A DNA stretch of 62,628 bases, the filler included, from Candidatus Woesearchaeota archaeon (lineage in GTDB: Archaea; Nanobdellota; Nanobdellia; Woesearchaeales; CG1-02-33-12), in NCBI GenBank assembly GCA_018399355.1. It is 3 parts of 3 records of this genome, joined end to end, with 100 filler letters (N's around TTAATTAATTAA, not from the genome) between each part and the next. Parts side by side here need not be neighbours in the genome. Positions count along the whole stretch, not along the records: positions 42,541 to 62,628 come from JAGYOA010000014.1; 2 more parts are not named here. One strand, given 5' to 3'. The stretch's first letter is position 1, and each line of letters begins with the position of its first letter. The position numbers and the translations under genes are program-made. The notes beneath the pieces were generated by a model that ran no database searches, had not been told where the DNA came from, and was given only the letters and a program-made list of their open reading frames with translations. Positions 2,377 through 61,218 of this stretch are shown piece by piece.

Positions 2377-2964
2377 ATGAAAATAACTAAAGCATACCTT
2401 CAAAGGGCATACCCAAACGAAAGTCTAAGGCGTTATGCATATAGGGGAAATATGGATAATGAACATATTAGTGAACTTCCTCTTTATCTAGGTGAACTGA
2501 TTGCATATAGTGCTGCTTTAAACTACTTTAAGGAAAGAGAAGATTATAATCTTCTTGAAAAAATAGCTGGACTTGATTTTTACAATGGGTTTAAGGAAAT
2601 GGGAAAGCAAGATATTAAAATCAAACTAGGTAAAAAAATAATTGGTTATGAAAACATATTTCATTTTGTTAATAGTGTTAAAAAAAAGGCAAAAAATTCA
2701 GGCAACCTCACAGTTAGTGATGTAAGAACCAATGAGCTTTTGAATCCTAAATCTAATGATGCTGACTTTTATAGGAGGTTAGGTAAAGTTGATAAAGTTT
2801 TAATGAACAATTACAAAAATGTTTTAAAATTTATTTCAGAAGGAAGAGGAAGAGCTAAAAATGAATACCCTTCTAACTATGATAAGGGACTTTCAGAGAT
2901 TCTTTCAGAGAGCAATATCCCTGTTAATCCAAAAAAAGAAGTATACCAGCCAAAATTATTCTAG
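2377..2964 (+). CDS. Hypothetical protein
   Basis: 195-aa ORF with BRE/TATA (CGAAAGATTTAAATA) about 25 bp upstream; no recognised motif. Confidence 0.6.
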   Translation: MKITKAYLQRAYPNESLRRYAYRGNMDNEHISELPLYLGELIAYSAALNYFKEREDYNLLEKIAGLDFYNGFKEMGKQDIKIKLGKKIIGYENIFHFVNSVKKKAKNSGNLTVSDVRTNELLNPKSNDADFYRRLGKVDKVLMNNYKNVLKFISEGRGRAKNEYPSNYDKGLSEILSESNIPVNPKKEVYQPKLF

Positions 2965-4292
2965 GAATTTATTATCTTTAAAACTTTATCCCTCATTTCT
3001 TCCATCTTTTGTTTTGTTTTGGCCTCCAGATTAAGCCTTAATAATGGTTCTGTATTGGATGGCCTTACATTGAAGTGCCAGTCATCATATTCCACTGAAA
3101 CACCATCAATATGATAAATATTGCCGTCACTAAATTCCTTCTCTAGTTTTTTCATAACCCCTTTTTTATCTTCAACTTTTATATTTGTCTCGGGAATTAC
3201 AAAATATTTTTCAGTAGGGATTAACAGTTCTGAGATAGACTTGTCTTTCTTTGATAAAATTTCAATAACCTTAAGTGCTGTTACAATACCATCCTCAAAA
3301 TATGTGTCTTTGTATCTGTAAAAATAATGGCCGCTTATCTCACCAGAAAAAGGCGAGTCAAACTCACGCATTATTTGCTTGAAAAAAGGATGCCCTGCCC
3401 TTGAGAGCTTATACTTGCCGTTATTTTTTTCAATTATATCTCTCACAAACCAGCTTGCCCTCAAATCATAAACAATCATTGATTCAGGGTATTCTTTGAG
3501 TATTTCATCTGCTATAATCCCTGTAAGAAAACCTCCATCGATAAATTTCCCTTTGTTATCTATAAAAATAGACCTGTCAGCATCTCCATCCCACATGACC
3601 CCAAAGTCTGCCTTGTTTTCAATTACTTTTTTAGATGCCTCTTGTCTTGCTTCCTCAAGCATCGGATTTGGCGGATGGTTTGGAAACTCACCGTTTGGCT
3701 CAAGATACATTGGAATCATCTCGATGTTTGTTTTTTCAAAAATATTTTTTGCTGCGATTCCTGCCATCCCGTTTGATGCATCCATAACAACCTTCAATGA
3801 TTTTATGCTGTTTAAATCAACAAAACTTAAAGCAAAGTTTGTATAGTCATCAAGAATTTCTTTTTTTATTAACTGGCCTTTTTTTTCTGATTCCTTAAAT
3901 TCGTTTTTTTCATAAATCTTTTCTATGTCTTCAAGGCCATCACCTTCATTTATAGGTATTGATTTTTCCCTTACAATTTTTAATCCATTGTATTCTTTTG
4001 GATTATGGGATGCGGTTATCATTATCCCTCCATCATAACCGTATTCAACAACTGAAAAATAAAGCATTGGTGTGCTTGACAATCCAATATCAACGACATC
4101 ACATCCCTGTTCTGTTATTCCCTTTACTAAAGCTTCGAAAAGTGATTCAGAACTTGATCTTACATCCCGGCCTATGGCAATCCTCTTTGGCTTTAAGAAT
4201 TCAACATAGGCTTTTCCTATCCTGTAAACTTTATCTTCATCTAATTCCTGGGGATAAATCCCTCTTATATCATATGCCTTGAATATTCCCAT
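2961..4292 (-). CDS. Phosphomannomutase/phosphoglucomutase
   Basis: FKAYDIRG, TASHNP phosphoserine loop, DGDADR metal loop, RPSNTEP. Confidence 0.96.
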   Translation of the reverse strand: MGIFKAYDIRGIYPQELDEDKVYRIGKAYVEFLKPKRIAIGRDVRSSSESLFEALVKGITEQGCDVVDIGLSSTPMLYFSVVEYGYDGGIMITASHNPKEYNGLKIVREKSIPINEGDGLEDIEKIYEKNEFKESEKKGQLIKKEILDDYTNFALSFVDLNSIKSLKVVMDASNGMAGIAAKNIFEKTNIEMIPMYLEPNGEFPNHPPNPMLEEARQEASKKVIENKADFGVMWDGDADRSIFIDNKGKFIDGGFLTGIIADEILKEYPESMIVYDLRASWFVRDIIEKNNGKYKLSRAGHPFFKQIMREFDSPFSGEISGHYFYRYKDTYFEDGIVTALKVIEILSKKDKSISELLIPTEKYFVIPETNIKVEDKKGVMKKLEKEFSDGNIYHIDGVSVEYDDWHFNVRPSNTEPLLRLNLEAKTKQKMEEMRDKVLKIINS

Positions 4293-4311
4293 TTTTTCTC
4301 CTTAAGAACAA

Positions 4312-5148
4312 TTAGCTTATTCCTTTCCACTGCTTTATTGCCTTTTCATACCTTTCTATGTTTCTTGTGTCAAACCACTGTCCGCTGAAAGGATATCCAT
4401 AAAGCCTTCCCATCTCAGCAAGCTTTGGAAACACATCATTTTCAAGCATTGCAAATCCATCCGGAATAAAATCAATTACCTCTGGCTCAATTATGTAAAA
4501 TCCAGAGCTTATTAATTTTGAGGGAGCCTTTTCTTTCTTTGGCTTTTCAACAAATTCAAGAATTTTTGAGCCTGATAACCTTGCAACTCCGTACTTGCTT
4601 GGGTCTTCTACTGTTGTTAGTGCAATGGTCACAAGCGCATTATTTTCTTTATGAAAATTGTACATTTCCTCTATATTTATATCCTTTAGTTCATCACCGT
4701 TTGAAACAATGAAAGATTCCTTGAATAATTTTTTTCCGAGTTTTATCGGGCCTGCTGTGCCCATGGGCTTGTTTTCCTCTATGTACTTTATTTTTAATCC
4801 GAACTTAGCGCCGTCCTTGAAATAGTCTTTTACCTTTTCCTTCATATGGCCCACGGCCATTGTTATGTCTTTTATCTCGTATTTTTTGAATAAGTCAAAA
4901 AGATGCTCTGTTAATGTTTTTCCCTGTACTGGAATAAGCGCTTTTGGTATTTCATAAGTTATAGGCCTTAGTCTTGTTCCCTTTCCACCTGCAAGAATCA
5001 CTGCCTTTTTTGGCACATTGTCTCCCATGGCCTTTACAACAAAAAGCTCAACAGCATGAGAACGGTTTTTTATATTAAAGCCGTCTACCTTTGAGTCAAT
5101 CCTTTTTATTACATCAGAATCAAGTGTTAGTGTTACCCTCTCTTTCAT
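4312..5148 (-). CDS. Sugar-1-phosphate nucleotidyltransferase with N-terminal ribbon-helix-helix domain
   Basis: ILAGGKGTRLRP.T...PK and EKP motifs; N-terminal RVTLTLDSDVIKRID...NRSHAVE is RHH-like. Confidence 0.9.
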   Translation of the reverse strand: MKERVTLTLDSDVIKRIDSKVDGFNIKNRSHAVELFVVKAMGDNVPKKAVILAGGKGTRLRPITYEIPKALIPVQGKTLTEHLFDLFKKYEIKDITMAVGHMKEKVKDYFKDGAKFGLKIKYIEENKPMGTAGPIKLGKKLFKESFIVSNGDELKDINIEEMYNFHKENNALVTIALTTVEDPSKYGVARLSGSKILEFVEKPKKEKAPSKLISSGFYIIEPEVIDFIPDGFAMLENDVFPKLAEMGRLYGYPFSGQWFDTRNIERYEKAIKQWKGIS

Positions 5149-5302
5149 ATCTAAAAATGGTTGATTTTTATATTTAAACCTTTCGTTTTGTATTACAAAA
5201 TATGATAATTAAATATTTAAGCACAAACAAACCATTTCAAAAACAGAAAGATTTATATACTAAATATGTTACTTATTAGTAATAACAATTAGGGGTTTTA
5301 AT

Positions 5303-6058
5303 ATGAATGAAAGCAATCAAGGTGAAGATATTGCTGATTATGTAAATCAAAACCACGAAGGAATGCAATTACCTAAAACAAATAAATTCAAGCAAAAAAT
5401 AGAAGGACTTTACGAAGGAGCACGTAATCTTACGTCTAGTCTTTATAGAGGATTCTTTAAGGCTTCAACAGTAGCTGGTGCTACAACTGTGTTTTGCGCT
5501 AATTATTCAACTATCAATAATTTCGTTGAAAAATATACAGGAAATGAAGATGCAATACTCAATTTTGGATTAAATGATGCTGCTATGGGTGGGTTAGCTG
5601 TTTCAACTGTTCTTGCATCTTACTTAATGGCTAAAAAATACAATCCTCTTGAGAAAATAGTAAGTGGAACAGGAAAACTAGTGTATAGTTCATCTAAATT
5701 TGGAGCTAAGTCTGTATACAATTCAGGCAAATTTTTTGTTGAGGGTACAAGAGATTTTGTTGGAGAAATAATAGTTGCTCCTGTATCACAAAAATTACGC
5801 TCAAAAATAACTACAAAAGAAACATATGAATCAAATATGGAAAGAGAAGAACAGATTTTAGAGCACAGGAGAAATAAAGCATTAAAGAAAGCAGATAACC
5901 TGCAATCTAAAATAAACAAATTGCAGAAATTAAAAATAAATTACCAAGACAACATGGTTGAAAATCCTGGACTTTACAGTGAAAAAATAGAAGATGCTAA
6001 TGAAAAACTAAAAAGCTTATATGAACAAAAAAACTCTTTAAATCCTGATGCCATATAA
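5303..6058 (+). CDS. Hypothetical membrane-associated coiled-coil protein
   Basis: 251-aa ORF with hydrophobic segments, charged C-terminus and upstream TATA. Confidence 0.6.
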   Translation: MNESNQGEDIADYVNQNHEGMQLPKTNKFKQKIEGLYEGARNLTSSLYRGFFKASTVAGATTVFCANYSTINNFVEKYTGNEDAILNFGLNDAAMGGLAVSTVLASYLMAKKYNPLEKIVSGTGKLVYSSSKFGAKSVYNSGKFFVEGTRDFVGEIIVAPVSQKLRSKITTKETYESNMEREEQILEHRRNKALKKADNLQSKINKLQKLKINYQDNMVENPGLYSEKIEDANEKLKSLYEQKNSLNPDAI

Positions 6059-7318
6059 TGTGTGATTTGTTGCTTTTGTTATTTTTACATTGATTTTTTT
6101 CCCTATTAAATTGTTTTTTGATTGAATTACAACAGGCTTGTAGCAGTAATTCCGGCCTATGAAAGAACCTTTTTGGCCCTTTTCATCAACCAAAATCTCT
6201 CCCTCCCAGTTCATCCATTTTTTGTTTCTATCAGTGCAGATTTTGTTGAATTCTTTTGTTAATATTTGGCTTCTCTTTTTTGTTATTCTTCCATGCACTT
6301 GGTTTTCCATTTTTTCAGCTTCTGTTCCTGGTCTTGGCCAGAACCTTGAAATATTCAGGACGTCTAATTTAGTTTCTTTGATTAGATTTACAGAATCATT
6401 AAATTGTTTTTCTGTCTCTCCTGGAAAGCCGCATATTATGTCTGTGCTTATTGTTATTTCAGGAATCTCTTTTCTTAGCTTTTTTATTATTTTTTTAAAG
6501 TCATTTGCTTTATAGGGCCTTTTCATTTTTTTTAAGATTTCATTATTTCCAGACTGAACAGGAATATGCAGAAATTTAAAGATTTTATCTGATTTGATTA
6601 AAGCTATTAAATTATCTAAAATCAAGATTAAGTTGTTTGGATCCATCATTCCTATTCTTACCTTGAAATCGCCTTTTACATTGATTATCTTTTTTAGCAA
6701 CGAGACAAGGTTTTTGTTTATGTCCTGGCCATAAGAAGCAGTATCCTGGGATGTAAGCCAGATTTCCTTGCATCCATCTTTAATAGCAGACTTAACTTGC
6801 TTTACAATTTCATCTTCTGGATAAGAAAATAATTTTCCTTTAGCAAGCCTTACAATACAATAAGTGCATATTCCATTGCATCCCTCTGAGATCTGTATTA
6901 TCTGGATTATGCTATTTTTTCTTTTTACCGGCAGGTTAAGCTTTGTTTCATTTCTCTTGCCTGTTAAATCAATTGAGTCTCCTCTAATTATTTTTTCAAC
7001 AGCACTAACAATTTCTCTAGTGTGATGAACTCCGACAAAAGATAATTCTGGAGAAATCTTTTTTAGCATATCTTTCTGTACTTCGGGCATACAACCGGCT
7101 ATGATTAATTTCTTTTTCAACTTTAAGAAATCCCTTATTGTTCTTTTAACCTTCTTTTCAGTAGGAAGTTTTACTGTGCATGTGTTAACTATGATTAAAT
7201 CTGCATCTTCTGGTTCGTTAACAATGTTGTGGCCCGCTTTTAACAAAAGCCCCTCCATTATCTCAGAATTGTTATAGTTTGCAGAGCATCCAAAAGTCTT
7301 TATGAATATTTTGGCCAT
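6038..7318 (-). CDS. tRNA t6A37 methylthiotransferase (MtaB/CDKAL1-type radical SAM)
   Basis: UPF0004 domain (TFGCSAN, NTCTVK, AGCMP), CNGICTYC radical SAM motif, C-terminal TRAM. Confidence 0.93.
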   Translation of the reverse strand: MAKIFIKTFGCSANYNNSEIMEGLLLKAGHNIVNEPEDADLIIVNTCTVKLPTEKKVKRTIRDFLKLKKKLIIAGCMPEVQKDMLKKISPELSFVGVHHTREIVSAVEKIIRGDSIDLTGKRNETKLNLPVKRKNSIIQIIQISEGCNGICTYCIVRLAKGKLFSYPEDEIVKQVKSAIKDGCKEIWLTSQDTASYGQDINKNLVSLLKKIINVKGDFKVRIGMMDPNNLILILDNLIALIKSDKIFKFLHIPVQSGNNEILKKMKRPYKANDFKKIIKKLRKEIPEITISTDIICGFPGETEKQFNDSVNLIKETKLDVLNISRFWPRPGTEAEKMENQVHGRITKKRSQILTKEFNKICTDRNKKWMNWEGEILVDEKGQKGSFIGRNYCYKPVVIQSKNNLIGKKINVKITKATNHTLYGIRI

Positions 7319-7377
7319 GTTTCAATAAAAAACAACAACCTTTAAATAGTTTTTTTAATTTTTTAATTTTGGTAAAA

Positions 7378-8016
7378 ATGGTGGTAAAACTTTTCTGGCA
7401 GGATCAATATATGAAAGAATGTTATTCAAAGGTTACGGCTATTGAGGACAGCAAGGTCTGGCTTGACCAGACAGTTTTTTTTGCCTTTTCAGGGGGCCAG
7501 GCTTCTGACAAGGGAACAATAAACAACATAAATGTCCTGGAAGCAGTAGCACAGGGAGAAGATGAAATCTACTATATCCTTGAAAAAGAGCCTGACTTTT
7601 CAGTCGGTGATAATGTAAAGGTAGAGATTGACTGGGAGCACCGCTTTAAGTTAATGAGACTGCACTCTGCAGCTCATATAGTCTATTATTATTTCATCGA
7701 GAAAGCAGGAAAACAAAAAGTAATTGGCTCAAATATAAGCATTGACAAAGCACGTTTAGATTTTGCGTATGACGAGTCCGTTGGTCCATTGCTTGAGGAA
7801 ATACAGGAAAAGACAAGCAAGACAATAGATGAAGGAATTGATATAAAAACCTTTGAAGATGAGAAAGATCCAACAAGAAGGTTATGGGAATGCGGAAAAT
7901 GGCTTATGCCTTGCGGCGGAACACACGTTAAAAATACAAAGGAAATTGGCCAAATAAAACTCAAAAGAAAGAATATTGGCGCCGGAAAAGAAAGAATCGA
8001 AGTAATATTAGTATAA
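7378..8016 (+). CDS. alaX: AlaX-type tRNA editing protein
   Basis: GGQASDKG, MRLHSAAH and CGGTH zinc motifs. Confidence 0.92.
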   Translation: MVVKLFWQDQYMKECYSKVTAIEDSKVWLDQTVFFAFSGGQASDKGTINNINVLEAVAQGEDEIYYILEKEPDFSVGDNVKVEIDWEHRFKLMRLHSAAHIVYYYFIEKAGKQKVIGSNISIDKARLDFAYDESVGPLLEEIQEKTSKTIDEGIDIKTFEDEKDPTRRLWECGKWLMPCGGTHVKNTKEIGQIKLKRKNIGAGKERIEVILV

Positions 8017-49827: not shown

Positions 49828-50506
49828 TATGGAAAAAATAATAGTAATATCATTAGGCGGCTCGATAATAGTGCCCAATGAAATAAATGTAGAATTTCTT
49901 AAGGGTTTTAAAAGATTGATAAACAATTTTGTTGAAGATGGGAACAAAGCAATAATTGTTTGTGGAGGAGGAAGCACTGCAAGAAAATACCAGTCAGCTG
50001 CAGGAAGAATAAGCAATTTAAGGGATGATGACCTTGACTGGATGGGGATTCATACAACAAGATTAAATGCACAGCTTGTGAAAACTTTGTTTTTAGGAAA
50101 AGTGCATGAGTTTATAATCCACAATCCTAATGATAAGATTGATTTCAAGGAAAATATTCTTATTGCAGCTGGATGGAAACCTGGATGGAGCACTGATTAT
50201 GATGCTATTAGATTAGCGCATAACTTTAATGTCAAGGCTGTTTTAAATGTAAGCAACGTGCCTTATGTTTATGACAAGCCGCCAAAGGAAAACCATGATG
50301 CAAAACCAATTAAGAATATGTCATGGAAGGAATTAAGAAAATTAGTCGGAGATAAATGGGATCCCGGGCTTAGCGCTCCTTTTGACCCAATTGCTGCAAA
50401 AGAAGGAGAAAAACTCGGCATAGAAGTTATAGTTTTAGGCACCGACTTAAAAAATCTTGAGAATTATTTAAATGAAAAAGAATTTAATGGGACTGTTATA
50501 AGCTAA
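49820..50506 (+). CDS. pyrH: UMP kinase
   Basis: [29 protein letters not shown]. Confidence 0.95.
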
Positions 50507-51411
50507 CACATTTTTGATTTGTTTTTCTCAAGGTCAAGAAGCTTTTGCCAGTTTTCATCAACATTTTCCTGAATTTCTTTTATTTCACTTTCATTTAAAT
50601 GCTTGAATCTACCCTGAGATTTAAGATATTCATCTACAGGAATAACTTTAGACGGCTTTTTTGAAATCTTAACAACACCTTTTTCAATCTCATACAAAGG
50701 AGTTATATTTGATTCAACTGCGAGTCTTGCAATTTGAATTGTAAAACCTCCTCCTAATTTCCATCCAGTAGGGCATGTGGAAAAAACCTGTATATAAGCA
50801 GGACCATTGAACGCAAGTCCTTTTTTAACCTTCTCAATAAAATCAAGAGGAAATGCAATATTTGCTGTCGCAACATAAGCGCCATGCGCAGCCATTATAA
50901 AAGGCATTGGCTTTTTGAATTCTGTCTTGCCGTGAATCTTTGATCCTGCTGGACTGGTTGTTGTTGAAGCATATTTGGGTGTTGCGCCTGAGCGCTGTAT
51001 TCCTGTGTTCATATAAGCCCCATTATCATAACAGATATAACAAAAGTTATCTCCTCTTTCAGCAGCTCCCGATAATGCCTGAAATCCTATGTCAAATGTT
51101 CCGCCGTCTCCTCCAAAAGCCAAAACATTTACATCTTTTCTTTTTCCCAATGATTTTAAAGCCCTGTCCACTCCTGAAGCTATTGCTGCTGCATTCTCAA
51201 AAGCGCCGTGTATCCATGGAATTTTCCATGCTGTTTCAGGATAAGGTGTGCTGAATACTTCCAAACAGCCGGTTGCGTTTACAACAATTGTGTTTTTTCC
51301 AGCTGCCTTTAAAGCAAGCCTTGCCATTAAAGCAGCACCACAACCAGCGCATGCCCTATGACCTGATGCAAAATGCTCTTCTGTTGTTATTCCGGCAATC
51401 TTATCATCCAT
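50503..51411 (-). CDS. porB: Pyruvate:ferredoxin oxidoreductase beta subunit
   Basis: [24 protein letters not shown] motif, [14 protein letters not shown]. Confidence 0.96.
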
Positions 51412-51671: not shown

Positions 51672-52850
51672 TTAACTTAGCCACTCTGTCTGATTTGTTT
51701 TTCCTGTTCTTTCAAATGCCTTTTTTATATGCTCTTTGGTCACATCTCTTCCGCCAAGACCAGCAACAAAACCATTTATTATTGGCTTGTTTTCTTGATT
51801 GTAAAATGCTGACTTAAATTCCGTAAATAATGCCCCTTCATTTCCTAAGGATATATTACGGTCAATTACTGCTATGTTTTTGATGTTTTTGCAGCAGTTT
51901 GTTATCTCTTCTTTTGGAAATGGCCTGAAACATTTTATCTTGATTAGTCCTACTTTTTTCCCTTCTTTTCTCATTTCATCAACAACAACCCTTGCAGTTC
52001 CGCATATTGTTCCCATTGCCACAACAGCATATTCAGCGTCCTCAATTTTATAAGTTTCTAATACTCCATCTCCGTATCCGCGATTAAATGATTTTTTGAA
52101 TTCTGTGTTTGTTTTCTTTATAATTTCTTTTGCCCTTATTATTGCTTCATGTGTTTCTTGTCTGAACTCCATATAAGTGTCCGGAAACCCTATAGGTCCC
52201 ATTGTAACCGGCTTTTTAGGGTCTAGCTTAAATAGAGGATTGTATTTTGGAAGAAATTTATTAACATCTTTTTCATTTGGGATATCAACAGGCTCAAATA
52301 CATGGCTTAATGTAAATCCGTCAAGGCATACCATTACCGGAAGAAGAACTTCATGATTTTCCGCAATCTTGTATGCCTGTATTATTGTATCAAGGGCCTC
52401 CTGCGCAGATTCAATGTAAAGCTGTATCCACCCTGTATCTCTTTCTGATATGGAATCCTGGTGGTCGTTCCATATGTTTATAGGAGCGCTTAAAGCACGG
52501 TTAGCAACGGCCATAACAACCGGAAGCCTCATGCCTGCAACAATAAATAGAATCTCATGCATTAAAGCAAGGCCTTGTGATGCTGTTGCTGTGAATGTTC
52601 TTACTCCAGTTGCCTCAGATCCAATAGCTGCTGAAATAGCGCTGTGCTCTGACTCTACATGAATCATTTCTGCATTAAGCTCGCCGTTGTTGATAAACTC
52701 TGCAAGGCGCTCGACAATGTGCGTATCCACTGGTTAAGTATTTACTTAAACCAACTGTGGTGTTATAGGGTACATTGGTATTACCCTTGGTTCACATAGT
52801 TTAGCGCCCAAAGCAACGGCAGTGCTTGCCTCAATTACTTTCCTTACCAT
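51672..52850 (-). CDS. porA: Pyruvate:ferredoxin oxidoreductase alpha subunit, split by a 30-nt intron: join(52755..52850, 51672..52724), 382 aa
   Basis: Exon 1 MVRKVIEASTAVALGAKLCEPRVIPMYPITPQ; exon 2 THIVERLA...ESEHSA...TATASQGL. Confidence 0.92.
52725..52754 (-). other. Putative BHB/BHL-type mRNA intron in porA
   Basis: Minus-strand TTGGTTTAAGTAAATACTTAACCAGTGGAT; two in-frame TAA; CCAC/GTGG helix with AG^T and AT^A cut sites; removal restores YPITPQTH. Confidence 0.85.
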
Positions 52851-52924
52851 AAGATTAAGGCAATATAAGAAATATTTAAATATATTCTTTTTTACCATTT
52901 TAAATGTGGGTGTTAAACAGATAA

Positions 52925-54094
52925 ATGGAAAAGGTTGGGTTTAAAGGATTAATTAAGTACAATGTTTATATTAAATTAGATAAGGAAGCAGTAGTCTTAA
53001 TCCTTAACATAATAAAAAAATCGGGCCTTTTGTTGGATGAAGAAACAAAAGAAAATCTATATAGACTCTCAAAAAATAAAAAAATCTCATTAAAGTTTAT
53101 GAAAAAATTGTCTGTTCTATTAGATATTCCATATTCTTATTTTTATAAACATATCTTGCTGATAACTAGTGTAAAAAATACAAATATAGGAATAAGGGAT
53201 CCAAAACTTCCGTTTAATCTTGGTAATGTTTCTGGAGCAAGATTTATTGGTGCAATCATGGGGGATGGAGAAATAAACAGTCAAATTCAAGTAAGGTATA
53301 ACAACCAAAATAAGGATTTAATAAACATAATAATTCATTGTGCTAAAGATTTGTTTGGTGATGTTGATTATAAGATATACTTAAGGAAAGATAAAACATA
53401 CCAATTGCACTTCCCAAAAATCGTTGGGTTGATTATGATTGAATTTGGTTTAAAACACGGCTATAAATCAGAAAATAGCTATAAAATTCCTGATTTTATT
53501 TTCAAAAAAAATGAGAAAATAAAATCTGCATTAATAAGGCAATTTTTTAATGATGAGGGAAATGTAAGAATCAAAGACAGAAGATTGCAGGTTAAACAAA
53601 CATCAAAGGTTAAGGTTTCAAAAGTTGTTTGCAAAGAAAAATCAAATGAAATTGCACATAACTTTTTAATTGGTATAAAAAAATTGCTTAAGTCTTTGGG
53701 AATTGATTCAAATATAAGCCTTGGCGCTTATAGGTATAAAAAAGCTGATTGGGAGCTTTCTGTTTATGGAAAAGAAAATCTTGTTTTATATAAAGAGAAG
53801 ATTGGTTTTGATTTATATGAAAAAACAAAAAAGCTGGATGATGCAATTAAAAGCTATAAATTTCCTTCTGCCCCAAGAAATAAAAAGCTTGATTTTGCAA
53901 TAAATAAATTTAAAGAAGTTGAAAAAAAATATGGATATGTAACAAAATATCTTCTTGCTAAAGAATCAAAAAGATCTTTAAAAACAGCTGTTTACTATCT
54001 TGTTGATTTAAAAAAGATCAATAAAATAAAAGAAGTTGAAAGGCCAAAGGATAAAAAAGGCCATTTTTTACCAAGAAAATATAAGTCAGTTTAG
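52925..54094 (+). mobile_element. Free-standing two-motif LAGLIDADG homing endonuclease gene with flanking HTH-like domains
   Basis: ARFIGAIMGDGEI and SALIRQFFNDEGNV motifs; intein-EN-like LLKSLGIDS and YKEKIGF; no intein splicing termini; antisense within por operon. Confidence 0.85.
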
Positions 54095-54370
54095 CTACTT
54101 TTCCTCTTTCTTCATAATTATTGCCTTTACAGGACATTCATTTGCGCATATTCCACATCCTTTGCAATAATCATAATTAAACTCAAACTCTCCTTTCTTG
54201 TTTTTTCTTATAGCATTGTCAGGGCAGGAAGCCCAGCATTTTCCGCATTTTATGCACTTTTCCTGGTTTATCTCGGGCCTAAAAGATCGCCATCCACCTG
54301 TTTTGTTTTTTATAGTGGAGCCTGGCTCATCTATTACCGCTCCTATGCTAACCTTTTTTTTCTTGTTCAT
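54095..54370 (-). CDS. porD: Pyruvate:ferredoxin oxidoreductase delta subunit
   Basis: KTGGWRSFRP; CIKCGKCWASCP and YCKGCGICANECP. Confidence 0.96.
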   Translation of the reverse strand: MNKKKKVSIGAVIDEPGSTIKNKTGGWRSFRPEINQEKCIKCGKCWASCPDNAIRKNKKGEFEFNYDYCKGCGICANECPVKAIIMKKEEK

Positions 54371-54915
54371 TTTGTCTGGTTGTAAACAGCTGTTATTGCT
54401 TTCTTGTTAAGCTCAGCTATTTTTTTTCCTTTTGTTTTTAAAAAGATATCATCAATTGCCTTTACTAATGATTTAAGTGAAATCTCATTTGTTATTTTAG
54501 AGAAAGCCCCAAGCACAGCAGTGTTTACAATCGGCTTTCCAAAGATTTCAATTGCAATAGATGTTGCATCAACTGTATGAACATCAAACTTTCCATTTAT
54601 TTTAATTTCTTCTGGCTTTTTGTTTGTGTTTATTATTATTTTTCCATTATCATTTAATCCGGATGTAACATCCACTGATTCCAGCAATGAGAAATCAAGA
54701 ACAACAACAACATCCGGGTTGTATATCTGGCTTCTTATGTTTATCTTTTCATCAGAAATTCTTGCAAATGCCTGTACAGGCGCTCCTGCCCTCTCAACTC
54801 CAAACATGGGAAATGTCTGGCTTTGTTTGCCGTCATCAAAAGCAGCTATCGCCATTATTTGGCCTGTTGTAACCGCTCCCTGTCCACCCCTTCCATGGAT
54901 TCTTATATCTACCAT
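54367..54915 (-). CDS. porG: Pyruvate:ferredoxin oxidoreductase gamma subunit
   Basis: IRIHGRGGQGAVT, FGVERAGAPV, NTAVLGA; start at ATG 54915. Confidence 0.96.
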   Translation of the reverse strand: MVDIRIHGRGGQGAVTTGQIMAIAAFDDGKQSQTFPMFGVERAGAPVQAFARISDEKINIRSQIYNPDVVVVLDFSLLESVDVTSGLNDNGKIIINTNKKPEEIKINGKFDVHTVDATSIAIEIFGKPIVNTAVLGAFSKITNEISLKSLVKAIDDIFLKTKGKKIAELNKKAITAVYNQTK

Positions 54916-55004
54916 CTTTTTATGATAATAGGAATGATTGAAACTATTTATATCTTTTTGTTTTGCTGAAAACATTTATAAAGCAATAATTTAATCTTTA
55001 GTTT

Positions 55005-59823: not shown

Positions 59824-61218
59824 ATGAAAGAAAAAATTCAAAAAATAAATGATTATGAATGGCTTTTGCCTAAAAGTGCAAGAGATAAGATGAATGTAGA
59901 TGCAAAAATATTTGCAAATAAAAAAATCCTTGATGATATTGAGGATGATGCTGTACAGCAGCTAACTAATGTTGCTTGTCTTCCAGGTGTTATTGAGCCT
60001 GTTATTGGATTGCCGGATATGCACTTCGGCTATGGGTTGCCGATGGGTGCTGTAAGCGCATTTGATTCTGAAAATGGGGTTATATCTTCTGGATTGTGTG
60101 GTTTTGATATAAACTGCGGAATTAATTCAATAAGAACGAACTTAACTTATGATGAAGTAAAGGAAAAATTAAATGAACTTATCCCTGCTTTGTTTAATGC
60201 TGTTCCATGCGGAGTAGGCTCAAAGGGAAGGCTAAGATTAAATTATGAGCAACTTAATGGGGTTATGACCCGTGGATTAAACTGGGCTGTTGAAAATGGT
60301 TATGGGACAAAAAAAGATATTGAAAATACAGAAGAAAAAGGATGTATGCCTGATGCAGACCCTTCAAAGGTTTCTGATTTGGCAAAGAAAAGAGGGCTTC
60401 CACAACTAGGAACACTGGGGGCAGGAAATCATTTTCTTGAGATACAGAAAGTGAGTGATATTTATGATGAAAAATTTGCAAAAAAACATGGCATAGTTGA
60501 TAAAGACCAGGTTATGATAATGCTTCATTGCGGTAGCCGCGGTTTAGGTCATCAGATTGCAAGCGATTATCTAAAAATACATGAAAAGGCCGTAAGAAAG
60601 TACAACATATGGATTCCAGACAGGCAGCTTGCATGCGCTCCTGTTAATTCTCAGGAAGGCCAGGATTATTATGCTGCAATGAAATGTGCTGTTAATTATT
60701 CATTTACAAACAGGCTTGTTATGACCCATTGGATAAGGGAAACATTTGAGAAAGTTTTCAAAAAATCATGGGAAGAAATGGATATGCAGACAGTTTATGG
60801 AATCTGCCATAATATTGTAAAATTAGAAGAGATAAAAGGGAAAAAATATTATGTACACAGAAAGGGAGCAACAAGGGCCTTTCCTAATTTGCCTGTTATT
60901 GTTGCAGGAACGATGGGGACTGCATCATATATTTGTAAGGGAACAGAAACTGCACTAGATAAAACATTTGGAAGCTCTTGCCACGGCTCTGGAAGGGCTA
61001 TGAGCAGGAATGCTGCACTGAAGAAATTCAGGGGAGAAGAAGTAAATGACCAACTAAAAGTCAAAGGAATAATAGGCAAGGCAGGCAACTGGAAATCATT
61101 TGCAGAGGAAGCCCCTGACTGTTATAAAGATGTTGAGCAGGTTGTTGATTCTGTTGATAAAGCAGGAATTTCTCCTAAGGTTGTAAGAATGAGGCCAATG
61201 GGCGTTCTAAAGGGTTAA
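59824..61218 (+). CDS. rtcB: RNA-splicing ligase RtcB
   Basis: PDMHFGYG.P.G, GFDINCG, GTLGAGNHFLE, HRKGATRA, SSCHGSGR, EEAP..YK. Confidence 0.97.
   Translation: MKEKIQKINDYEWLLPKSARDKMNVDAKIFANKKILDDIEDDAVQQLTNVACLPGVIEPVIGLPDMHFGYGLPMGAVSAFDSENGVISSGLCGFDINCGINSIRTNLTYDEVKEKLNELIPALFNAVPCGVGSKGRLRLNYEQLNGVMTRGLNWAVENGYGTKKDIENTEEKGCMPDADPSKVSDLAKKRGLPQLGTLGAGNHFLEIQKVSDIYDEKFAKKHGIVDKDQVMIMLHCGSRGLGHQIASDYLKIHEKAVRKYNIWIPDRQLACAPVNSQEGQDYYAAMKCAVNYSFTNRLVMTHWIRETFEKVFKKSWEEMDMQTVYGICHNIVKLEEIKGKKYYVHRKGATRAFPNLPVIVAGTMGTASYICKGTETALDKTFGSSCHGSGRAMSRNAALKKFRGEEVNDQLKVKGIIGKAGNWKSFAEEAPDCYKDVEQVVDSVDKAGISPKVVRMRPMGVLKG

Follow-up and report, generated by a model that had tools for sequence, protein, structure and literature searches.

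A candidate protein-spliced mRNA intron in the porA gene of a Woesearchaeales archaeon and the free-standing LAGLIDADG gene beside it

The intron in the pre-mRNA of archaeal cbf5 was reportedly the subject of earlier studies by Watanabe in 2002 and Yoshinari in 2006, and the collaborative homing of F-CphI and psbA was reportedly treated by Zeng in 2009. In extracts of a paper from 2020, cbf5 is given as the only known case besides that paper's own; the latter is a BHB element that Haloferax HVO_1309 carries in its 5' UTR, a substrate of the splicing endonuclease EndA in an mRNA but outside the coding region (PMC7714728). Other introns are mentioned as predicted and unconfirmed in extracts of a further paper, which also state the rule that EndA cuts the bulge between its second and third residues (PMC2738675). 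Cleavage of relaxed motifs has been ascribed to EndAs of the (alpha-beta)2 and epsilon2 types that possess a special loop, and the alpha4 EndAs of DPANN archaea have been associated with more disrupted tRNAs (PMC5829648). Collaborative homing, according to the extracts available, has been described for phage group I introns (PMC3984707, PMC6083498). In extracts of a preprint on 208 complete Nanobdellota genomes (10.64898/2026.05.13.725050) the word intron appears once, for a tRNA, and PMC12397907 served as background only. Within the titles and abstract openings of the open-access literature, subscription journals being outside the scope, neither a porA intron nor archaeal collaborative homing was found, and cbf5 was the only archaeal coding-region intron named there.

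In the tiny archaeon studied here, the only gene for porA, a core energy-metabolism subunit, is split by a tRNA-intron-like insert of 30 bases. The window, i.e., the whole stretch of 62,628 nucleotides that was analyzed, consists of three joined contigs of this Candidatus Woesearchaeota genome, and the porA locus resides on contig C6 of a 918-kb assembly (97.5% complete, 85 contigs). The relevant features are:

50503..51411, minus strand: porB, TPP-binding subunit
51672..52724, minus strand: porA exon 2, 350 codons from THIVE, with POR_N and PFOR_II
52725..52754, minus strand: the insert (predicted intron), 30 nt with two in-frame TAA, comprising in order the hairpin, GUGG (helix partner) and two bulge bases
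52755..52850, minus strand: porA exon 1, 32 codons, ATG at 52850, C-terminal end YPITPQ
52873..52880, minus strand: TATA-like box TTTAAATA, located 30 nt ahead of the porA ATG
52925..54094, plus strand: free-standing, two-motif LAGLIDADG endonuclease gene, 389 aa, Pfam LAGLIDADG_3
54095..54370, minus strand: porD, 4Fe-4S subunit
54367..54975, minus strand: porG, POR gamma
59959..61215 (G000:C6:17419-18675), plus strand: rtcB RNA ligase, uninterrupted

The porA gene is part of a porG-porD-porA-porB cluster and provides the sole POR_N match of the genome. The sequence agrees with the preliminary description of this DNA, which had placed an ATG at 52850 ahead of 32 codons leading to YPITPQ, 30 nt with two in-frame stops and then THIVE, while the ORF caller starts porA at GTG 52730. 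The terminal bases of exon 1 read CCAC-AG and represent the 5' strand of the central helix plus two bulge bases. The insert falls one codon past the YPITP motif, which extracts of the literature describe as substrate binding, with most of the activity lost in single mutants (PMC5020499), and its boundaries cannot be slid by even one base. Exons 1 and 2, when joined, encode 382 aa, and most full-length homologs have about 379-385 aa.

For the copy in the window, the minimum-energy fold reproduces the 4-bp CCAC/GUGG helix, the 3-nt bulge and the intron hairpin drawn in the preliminary description. The exon-side closure by CAAUGU/ACAUUG proposed there held in part, being present in a 69-nt fold, absent from an 88-nt fold and not conserved. 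Taken singly, the fold does not stand out from chance (z = -1.3, with 23 of 200 shuffles equally good; p = 0.053 for the insert interior alone), an Rfam search returned only a weak U12 match far below cut-off, and a genome-wide scan yielded 5705 such candidates under loose and 77 under strict rules, with the porA insert ranking third. As both single-sequence fold and scan are weak, the case was built on comparison with other genomes.

The de novo scan for mRNA introns gave nothing else convincing among the 13 candidates inspected (11 of the 77 strict ones and two from the longer list), most of which sit inside an already open frame. One candidate (G000:C85:16237-16266), the best-folding of those inspected, outscored porA; its almost perfect hairpin lies where a transposase-like, presumably IS481-like, frame begins, and it is more likely an element end than an intron. 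The genes rnhB, gatE, cbf5, rtcB and pcm of this genome are open through their expected motifs, and a search for that of carB gave no match. The assembly yielded only 15 tRNA genes. The introns of tRNA-Trp and tRNA-Leu(CAA) (G000:C5:17535-17650 and G000:C23:2300-2430) share GATGAGC...GGCGATGATT with ATGA boxes and are possibly related guide or kink-turn RNAs; the TGGAG at the beginning of the tRNA-Trp intron could form pairs with the anticodon loop. At G000:C57:3409-3522, ARAGORN reports tRNA-Ser(aga) where the arm reads like tRNA-Ile(GAU) and the intron has a poor central helix.

A search with exon 2 in 61 genomes detected 30 loci, seven of which, including that of the window's genome, carry an insert at this boundary; close relatives, G004, G007 and G008 among them, have none there. 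A pattern with fixed flanking codons and free insert sequence of at most 40 nt matched with an insert in six of 401 genomes of the order, in eight genome contigs and in 17 metagenome loci, these sets being overlapping. Together with three found via the endonuclease, this amounts to 20 distinct inserts of 21-33 nt, all located at the identical codon boundary, with interiors that share 27-96% pairwise identity (median 56%). When a looser pattern was applied to 341 genomes of the class, its 11 matches consisted of the window's genome, intronless genes and chance hits and thus contained no new insert, and the porA junction was not found in viral contigs. Record titles of related loci name Woesearchaeota, Nanoarchaeota or Nanoarchaeia in seven of eight titled cases. 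One contig, L042, is titled uncultured Methanosarcinales archaeon; its positions 2788-7818 feature the por cluster, a pyrH-like gene and small membrane genes in a Woesearchaeales-like layout, its G+C content amounts to 34%, and the PorA of this contig clusters with that of a Woesearchaeales genome. L042 is therefore probably mislabelled or misbinned, and no spread of the intron to methanogens is claimed. In another locus, L017 (G023:C166:682-685 region), porA is intronless and its frame is broken some 40-50 codons after the start of exon 2.

The reading frame is broken in all 20 variants, nine of them by frameshift, while stops are present in 11 of the 11 in-frame inserts, and removal at the predicted bonds gives back the host frame and the intronless protein. 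All 24 intron-bearing loci that were examined have an ATG at a distance of 31-32 codons ahead of the junction. In comparisons of unaligned codons, synonymous differences outnumber the non-synonymous ones in 20 of 23 cases for exon 1 and in 21 of 23 for exon 2, such that both exons look conserved by selection.

Exon-1 positions -6 to -3 and the four bases that end two ahead of exon 2 form the 4-bp helix, which is kept in 19 of 20 variants, and the intron-side strand ends two bases before exon 2 in every one of them. In L060 both sides of the helix have changed to a compensatory CCTC/GAGG, and in L042 there is a single U-U mismatch with GTG kept. Across the alignment, 88% of cells pair as compared to 32-50% with slid partners, nine of 13 pairs change on both sides, and none of 500 shuffles, which ignore kinship, reaches 88%; these figures are not probabilities because the window's copy served as the template for the structure and the variants are kin. 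RNAalifold arrived unaided at the identical helix, bulge and stem, and 15 of the 20 inserts fold better than shuffles (p <= 0.05). CCA encodes the proline in 18 of 20 intron alleles vs. seven of 29 intronless genomes, a bias in line with the need for pairing with the intron. In the aligned porA genes of related genomes the insert is thus present or absent, its helix and bulge are kept and its hairpin covaries.

A dead gene or an assembly error might be suspected in a metagenome-assembled genome of 85 contigs, belonging to an order of which many members lack this porA. However, the same insert recurs with compensatory changes in independent assemblies, contradicting the artefact that the preliminary description had considered as a refutation, the exons are conserved in 24 loci, and porA is the only POR_N gene of a 97.5% complete genome with an intact por cluster. 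Based on the comparative evidence, i.e., variants, stem covariation, CCA bias and exon conservation, artefact and dead gene were rejected and appear to us exceedingly improbable.

The main rival to splicing is a split gene whose translation would begin anew at the in-frame GTG of the insert; a 34-aa YPITP peptide and the chain beginning at this GTG would then assemble into PorA. A GTG in frame with exon 2 is indeed present in 19 of 20 variants, L042 breaks one helix pair yet keeps it, gene callers predict such chains (27 of 120 listed PorA homologs lack YPITPQ, nearly all starting at or just past the junction), and Nanoarchaeota are stated to have split genes in extracts of PMC3655853. Clusters of three such truncated PorA proteins contain no full-length member. 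On the other hand, L060 swaps GTG for GAG along with the pairing exon base, the GTG is buried in a stem and is accounted for by its pairing with exon CAC, and a split gene leaves both the CCA codon bias and the stem covariation unexplained. The latter favours splicing; the split gene was rejected and is considered very unlikely.

The same variants bear on ribosomal bypass, for which T4 gene 60 is the type case and by which the insert would be skipped in translation. A stop codon and a hairpin do follow the last exon-1 codon, and six of the 20 variants, the window's included, offer a second in-frame CCA as a possible landing codon; such a CCA is missing from the other 14, a matching terminal Gln codon occurs in none of the 20, and neither exon pairing nor the fixed 2-nt offset is necessary for a hop. 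With no conserved landing codon, bypass was rejected as scarcely credible.

Splicing, the reading we prefer, depends on host enzymes, and both EndA and RtcB are encoded by the genome. The EndA gene is not part of the window; it is found on contig C56, whose end truncates it, and its single PF01974 match indicates an enzyme of one unit. EndA is full length in four of five intron-bearing relatives, the genome without an EndA match being 89% complete. The full-length EndA of G002 has no obvious loop insertion in comparison to that of M. jannaschii, and its best match is the catalytic subunit of N. equitans. The lack of such a loop speaks against cleavage of relaxed motifs by this enzyme; the association of DPANN alpha4 EndAs with disrupted tRNAs and the relaxed look of at least two host tRNA introns speak for it. 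The geometry of the porA insert agrees with the EndA cleavage rule. A 3-nt bulge at the 5' site is closed by an intron helix of 4-6 pairs in 15 of 20 variants, among them that of the window, and of 0-1 pairs in five. On the 3' side, the helix next to the bulge amounts to 0-2 pairs in each of the 20 variants and to none in the window's copy, in line with the relaxed exon side noted earlier, so that the motif is assigned to the relaxed class HBh' rather than to canonical BHB (hBHBh'), as named in PMC5829648; the exon-exon helix that would close a canonical 3-nt bulge at the 3' site was not seen in any of the 20. Introns of the host tRNAs look relaxed as well, with three of four helix pairs and no intron helix in tRNA-Trp and one intron pair in tRNA-Leu(UAA).

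Judged by its sequence, the porA insert thus displays the testable features of a relaxed, not a canonical, BHB-type intron. The earlier proposal of an intron of the EndA/RtcB type finds support because the position is fixed, the helix offset constant, the stem change compensatory and the frame broken in every variant, with exons conserved and both enzymes encoded. We are highly confident in the predicted course of splicing: in the transcript, CCAC of exon 1 would pair with intron GUGG above the hairpin, EndA would cut each 3-nt bulge after its second base, and RtcB would ligate the exons to yield a 382-aa PorA with YPITPQ-THIVE. A protein-spliced archaeal mRNA intron with a relaxed HBh' motif is, with good confidence, the best explanation for the insert.

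The preliminary description, while recognizing the insert, had missed the LAGLIDADG gene that starts 75 bases upstream of porA, head-to-head with it and inserted between porD and porA. The GDG and DEG motifs with their acidic residues are invariant in 28 homologs of this endonuclease. A structure model (pLDDT 93) matches homing endonucleases of inteins and introns, e.g., I-Tsp061I and I-DmoI, with the non-cutting regulator WhiA as a fold match at similar rank. Two LAGLIDADG helices, acidic catalytic residues and the family fold were all found in sequence and predicted model, the latter featuring extra N- and C-terminal helical domains. A profile of the endonuclease found no sequence-level match in the PDB, and relatives were not detected in viral contigs.

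Among the 401 genomes of the order, six match the endonuclease, and the five matches at 50-100% identity all flank an intron-bearing porA, the sixth (33%, in G143) being located elsewhere. The genomes G140, G311 and G082 had been missed by the porA pattern and were found by the endonuclease, adding new inserts of 29, 30 and 27 nt, respectively. Further homologs occur in eight of 17 metagenome loci and three of eight genome contigs. Altogether, 13 of the 20 intron variants are accompanied by the endonuclease, and seven lack it in the available locus sequence. Wherever the match reaches the N-terminus, a distance of 162-174 nt separates the start of the gene from the junction, and the gene, on the opposite strand, is free of stops; no endonuclease inside the intron was seen with patterns allowing inserts of up to 40 nt. 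The free-standing gene was found beside the intron allele in five of five cases and in none of 29 intronless genomes, although kin are not independent. Fisher's test for five of nine intron-bearing vs. none of 29 intronless genomes yields p 0.00025, three of the nine having been found through the enzyme itself; pattern-found genomes only (two of six vs. none of 29) give p 0.025, with the same reservation about kinship. Omission of G345 and G381 from the intronless set leads to p 0.028; these two genomes, which are also included in the tree, and G143 are unpublished.

The TTTAAATA box is present at -30 to -33 from the porA ATG in 13 of 14 endonuclease-bearing loci, in none of 11 intron-only loci and in none of the 28 intronless loci with a start found, one of which has the box at -42. 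By archaeal promoter spacing, the box 30 nt before the ATG is probably a promoter. Since it is confined at that spacing to loci with the endonuclease, it is probably a porA promoter brought along by the endonuclease cassette.

Beyond the por locus, proteins P0035-P0070 form a more distant endonuclease clade (about 42-50% identity, 390-435 aa) with two clusters labelled Aenigmarchaeota. Weaker homologs in other orders (L105-L108 from G411, G425, G507 and G567; E about 1e-44 to 1e-50) are situated immediately ahead of a nuclease gene with which they overlap; the frame of this neighbor looked open, and it is presumably of the PHP type. At L110, L112, L115, L118 and L119, weak homologs adjoin genes with HMGH/HVGH motifs, which we take to be aminoacyl-tRNA synthetase-like, and at L111 and L113 the neighbors are presumably Nre-like genes. 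Free-standing LAGLIDADG genes seem to favour conserved neighbors in this class.

For 12 endonuclease-bearing loci, obtained by dropping L061 with its partial endonuclease and reducing near-identical loci to one, similarity of the introns correlates with that of the endonucleases (r 0.51, p 0.0003; partial r 0.48, p 0.0007) and more weakly with that of PorA exon 2 (partial r 0.21, p 0.11). In a test of eight windows on these loci, the 30 nt on each side of the intron likewise follow the endonuclease (before: 0.42, p 0.0015; after: 0.34, p 0.0085), while the segment from -90 to -30 of exon 1, which lies between endonuclease and intron, follows the distant host PorA (p 0.017 and 0.005) and not the endonuclease. 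A single conversion tract from endonuclease to intron does not predict this, and the pattern needs two short tracts or later recombination. That the intron and its flanks track the endonuclease fits homing at this very site. On a quick tree of PorA exon 2 (59 rows, four of them less than half filled), 16 changes, with at least eight forced by strong branches, are required to account for the presence of the intron, which is no more clustered than shuffled labels (80 of 500 as low); this pattern cannot separate gain from loss.

Alternatively, the intron may be spliced as proposed while the LAGLIDADG protein is a divergent WhiA-like regulator or a bystander and the patchiness reflects one old gain followed by many losses. 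Such a reading is favored by the head-to-head layout with a shared intergenic TATA box, by the match of the fold to WhiA, by the lack of an endonuclease signal in the middle of exon 1 and by the weaker homologs (E 1e-26 to 1e-50) that adjoin other conserved genes with frames that looked open. It is opposed by the invariant acidic residues of both motifs, by the close homologs never being seen beside an intronless porA and by the intron and its immediate flanks following the endonuclease, and we consider this alternative unlikely, albeit one to be taken seriously.

We rate it as probable, on comparative grounds, that the intron spreads by collaborative homing. The LAGLIDADG enzyme would cut intronless porA at or near the conserved codon boundary, the intron would shield its own allele from the endonuclease, and repair would copy the intron plus about 30 nt of flank. 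The cassette would give porA a promoter while separating porA from porG-porD, and later loss of the endonuclease in some lines would lead to intron-only alleles. More tentatively, and with only a modest leaning in its favor, we propose that archaeal mRNA micro-introns are a class of mobile elements: a hairpin that borrows the host tRNA-splicing enzymes may act as the immunity tag of a free-standing LAGLIDADG gene, and the pair may home between families of symbiotic Woesearchaeales, carry a promoter for the host gene and convert intron and endonuclease sites in two separate short tracts.

The candidate intron would make porA the second gene, after cbf5, with a coding-region intron. This gene comes from a different phylum and functions in central metabolism, its insert exists in 20 natural variants, a candidate mobilizing enzyme accompanies it, and the porA system makes the origin and spread of such introns testable. 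Gene callers truncate these PorA proteins, and gene inventories of DPANN archaea may hide more introns of this kind. If the proposal is correct, a mobile class of micro-introns explains the origin and spread of introns too short for a nuclease of their own, and an enzyme of central carbon metabolism is under the control of EndA.

Among known systems, the archaeal rRNA introns with I-DmoI and I-Tsp061I share with porA a BHB-type intron and a two-motif LAGLIDADG fold, as far as extracts of PMC2738675 go. There, the enzyme is encoded inside the intron of an rRNA, whereas in porA it lies outside, on the other strand, and possesses extra helical domains. According to extracts of PMC6083498 and PMC3984707, F-CphI and the psbA group I intron of cyanophage S-PM2 resemble porA in that an optional free-standing endonuclease gene is located beside a conserved gene with an ORF-less intron and is absent from intronless alleles. 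The porA system differs in its cellular archaeal chromosome, the LAGLIDADG family and a 30-nt intron that is predicted to be spliced by proteins instead of a ribozyme. The cbf5 pre-mRNA intron of Desulfurococcales and Sulfolobales (Yokobori, 2009; PMC2738675, in extracts) is likewise a short coding-region intron (16-44 nt vs. 21-33 nt in porA) at a catalytic motif, with a mostly relaxed BHB and a variable interior; it is cut after the second bulge base, as predicted for porA, and both introns are present in some lines and absent in others. By analogy, the porA insert very likely works like the cbf5 intron as regards splicing, which has been demonstrated for cbf5 and is predicted for porA. The two differ in gene and phylum and in the enzyme, cbf5 being associated with an (alpha-beta)2 EndA and the porA host with a single-unit EndA. 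Finally, a single ancestral gain is given for cbf5, whose intron was called too short to encode an endonuclease and of unclear origin (PMC2738675, in extracts), whereas the porA intron is patchily spread and has an endonuclease partner.
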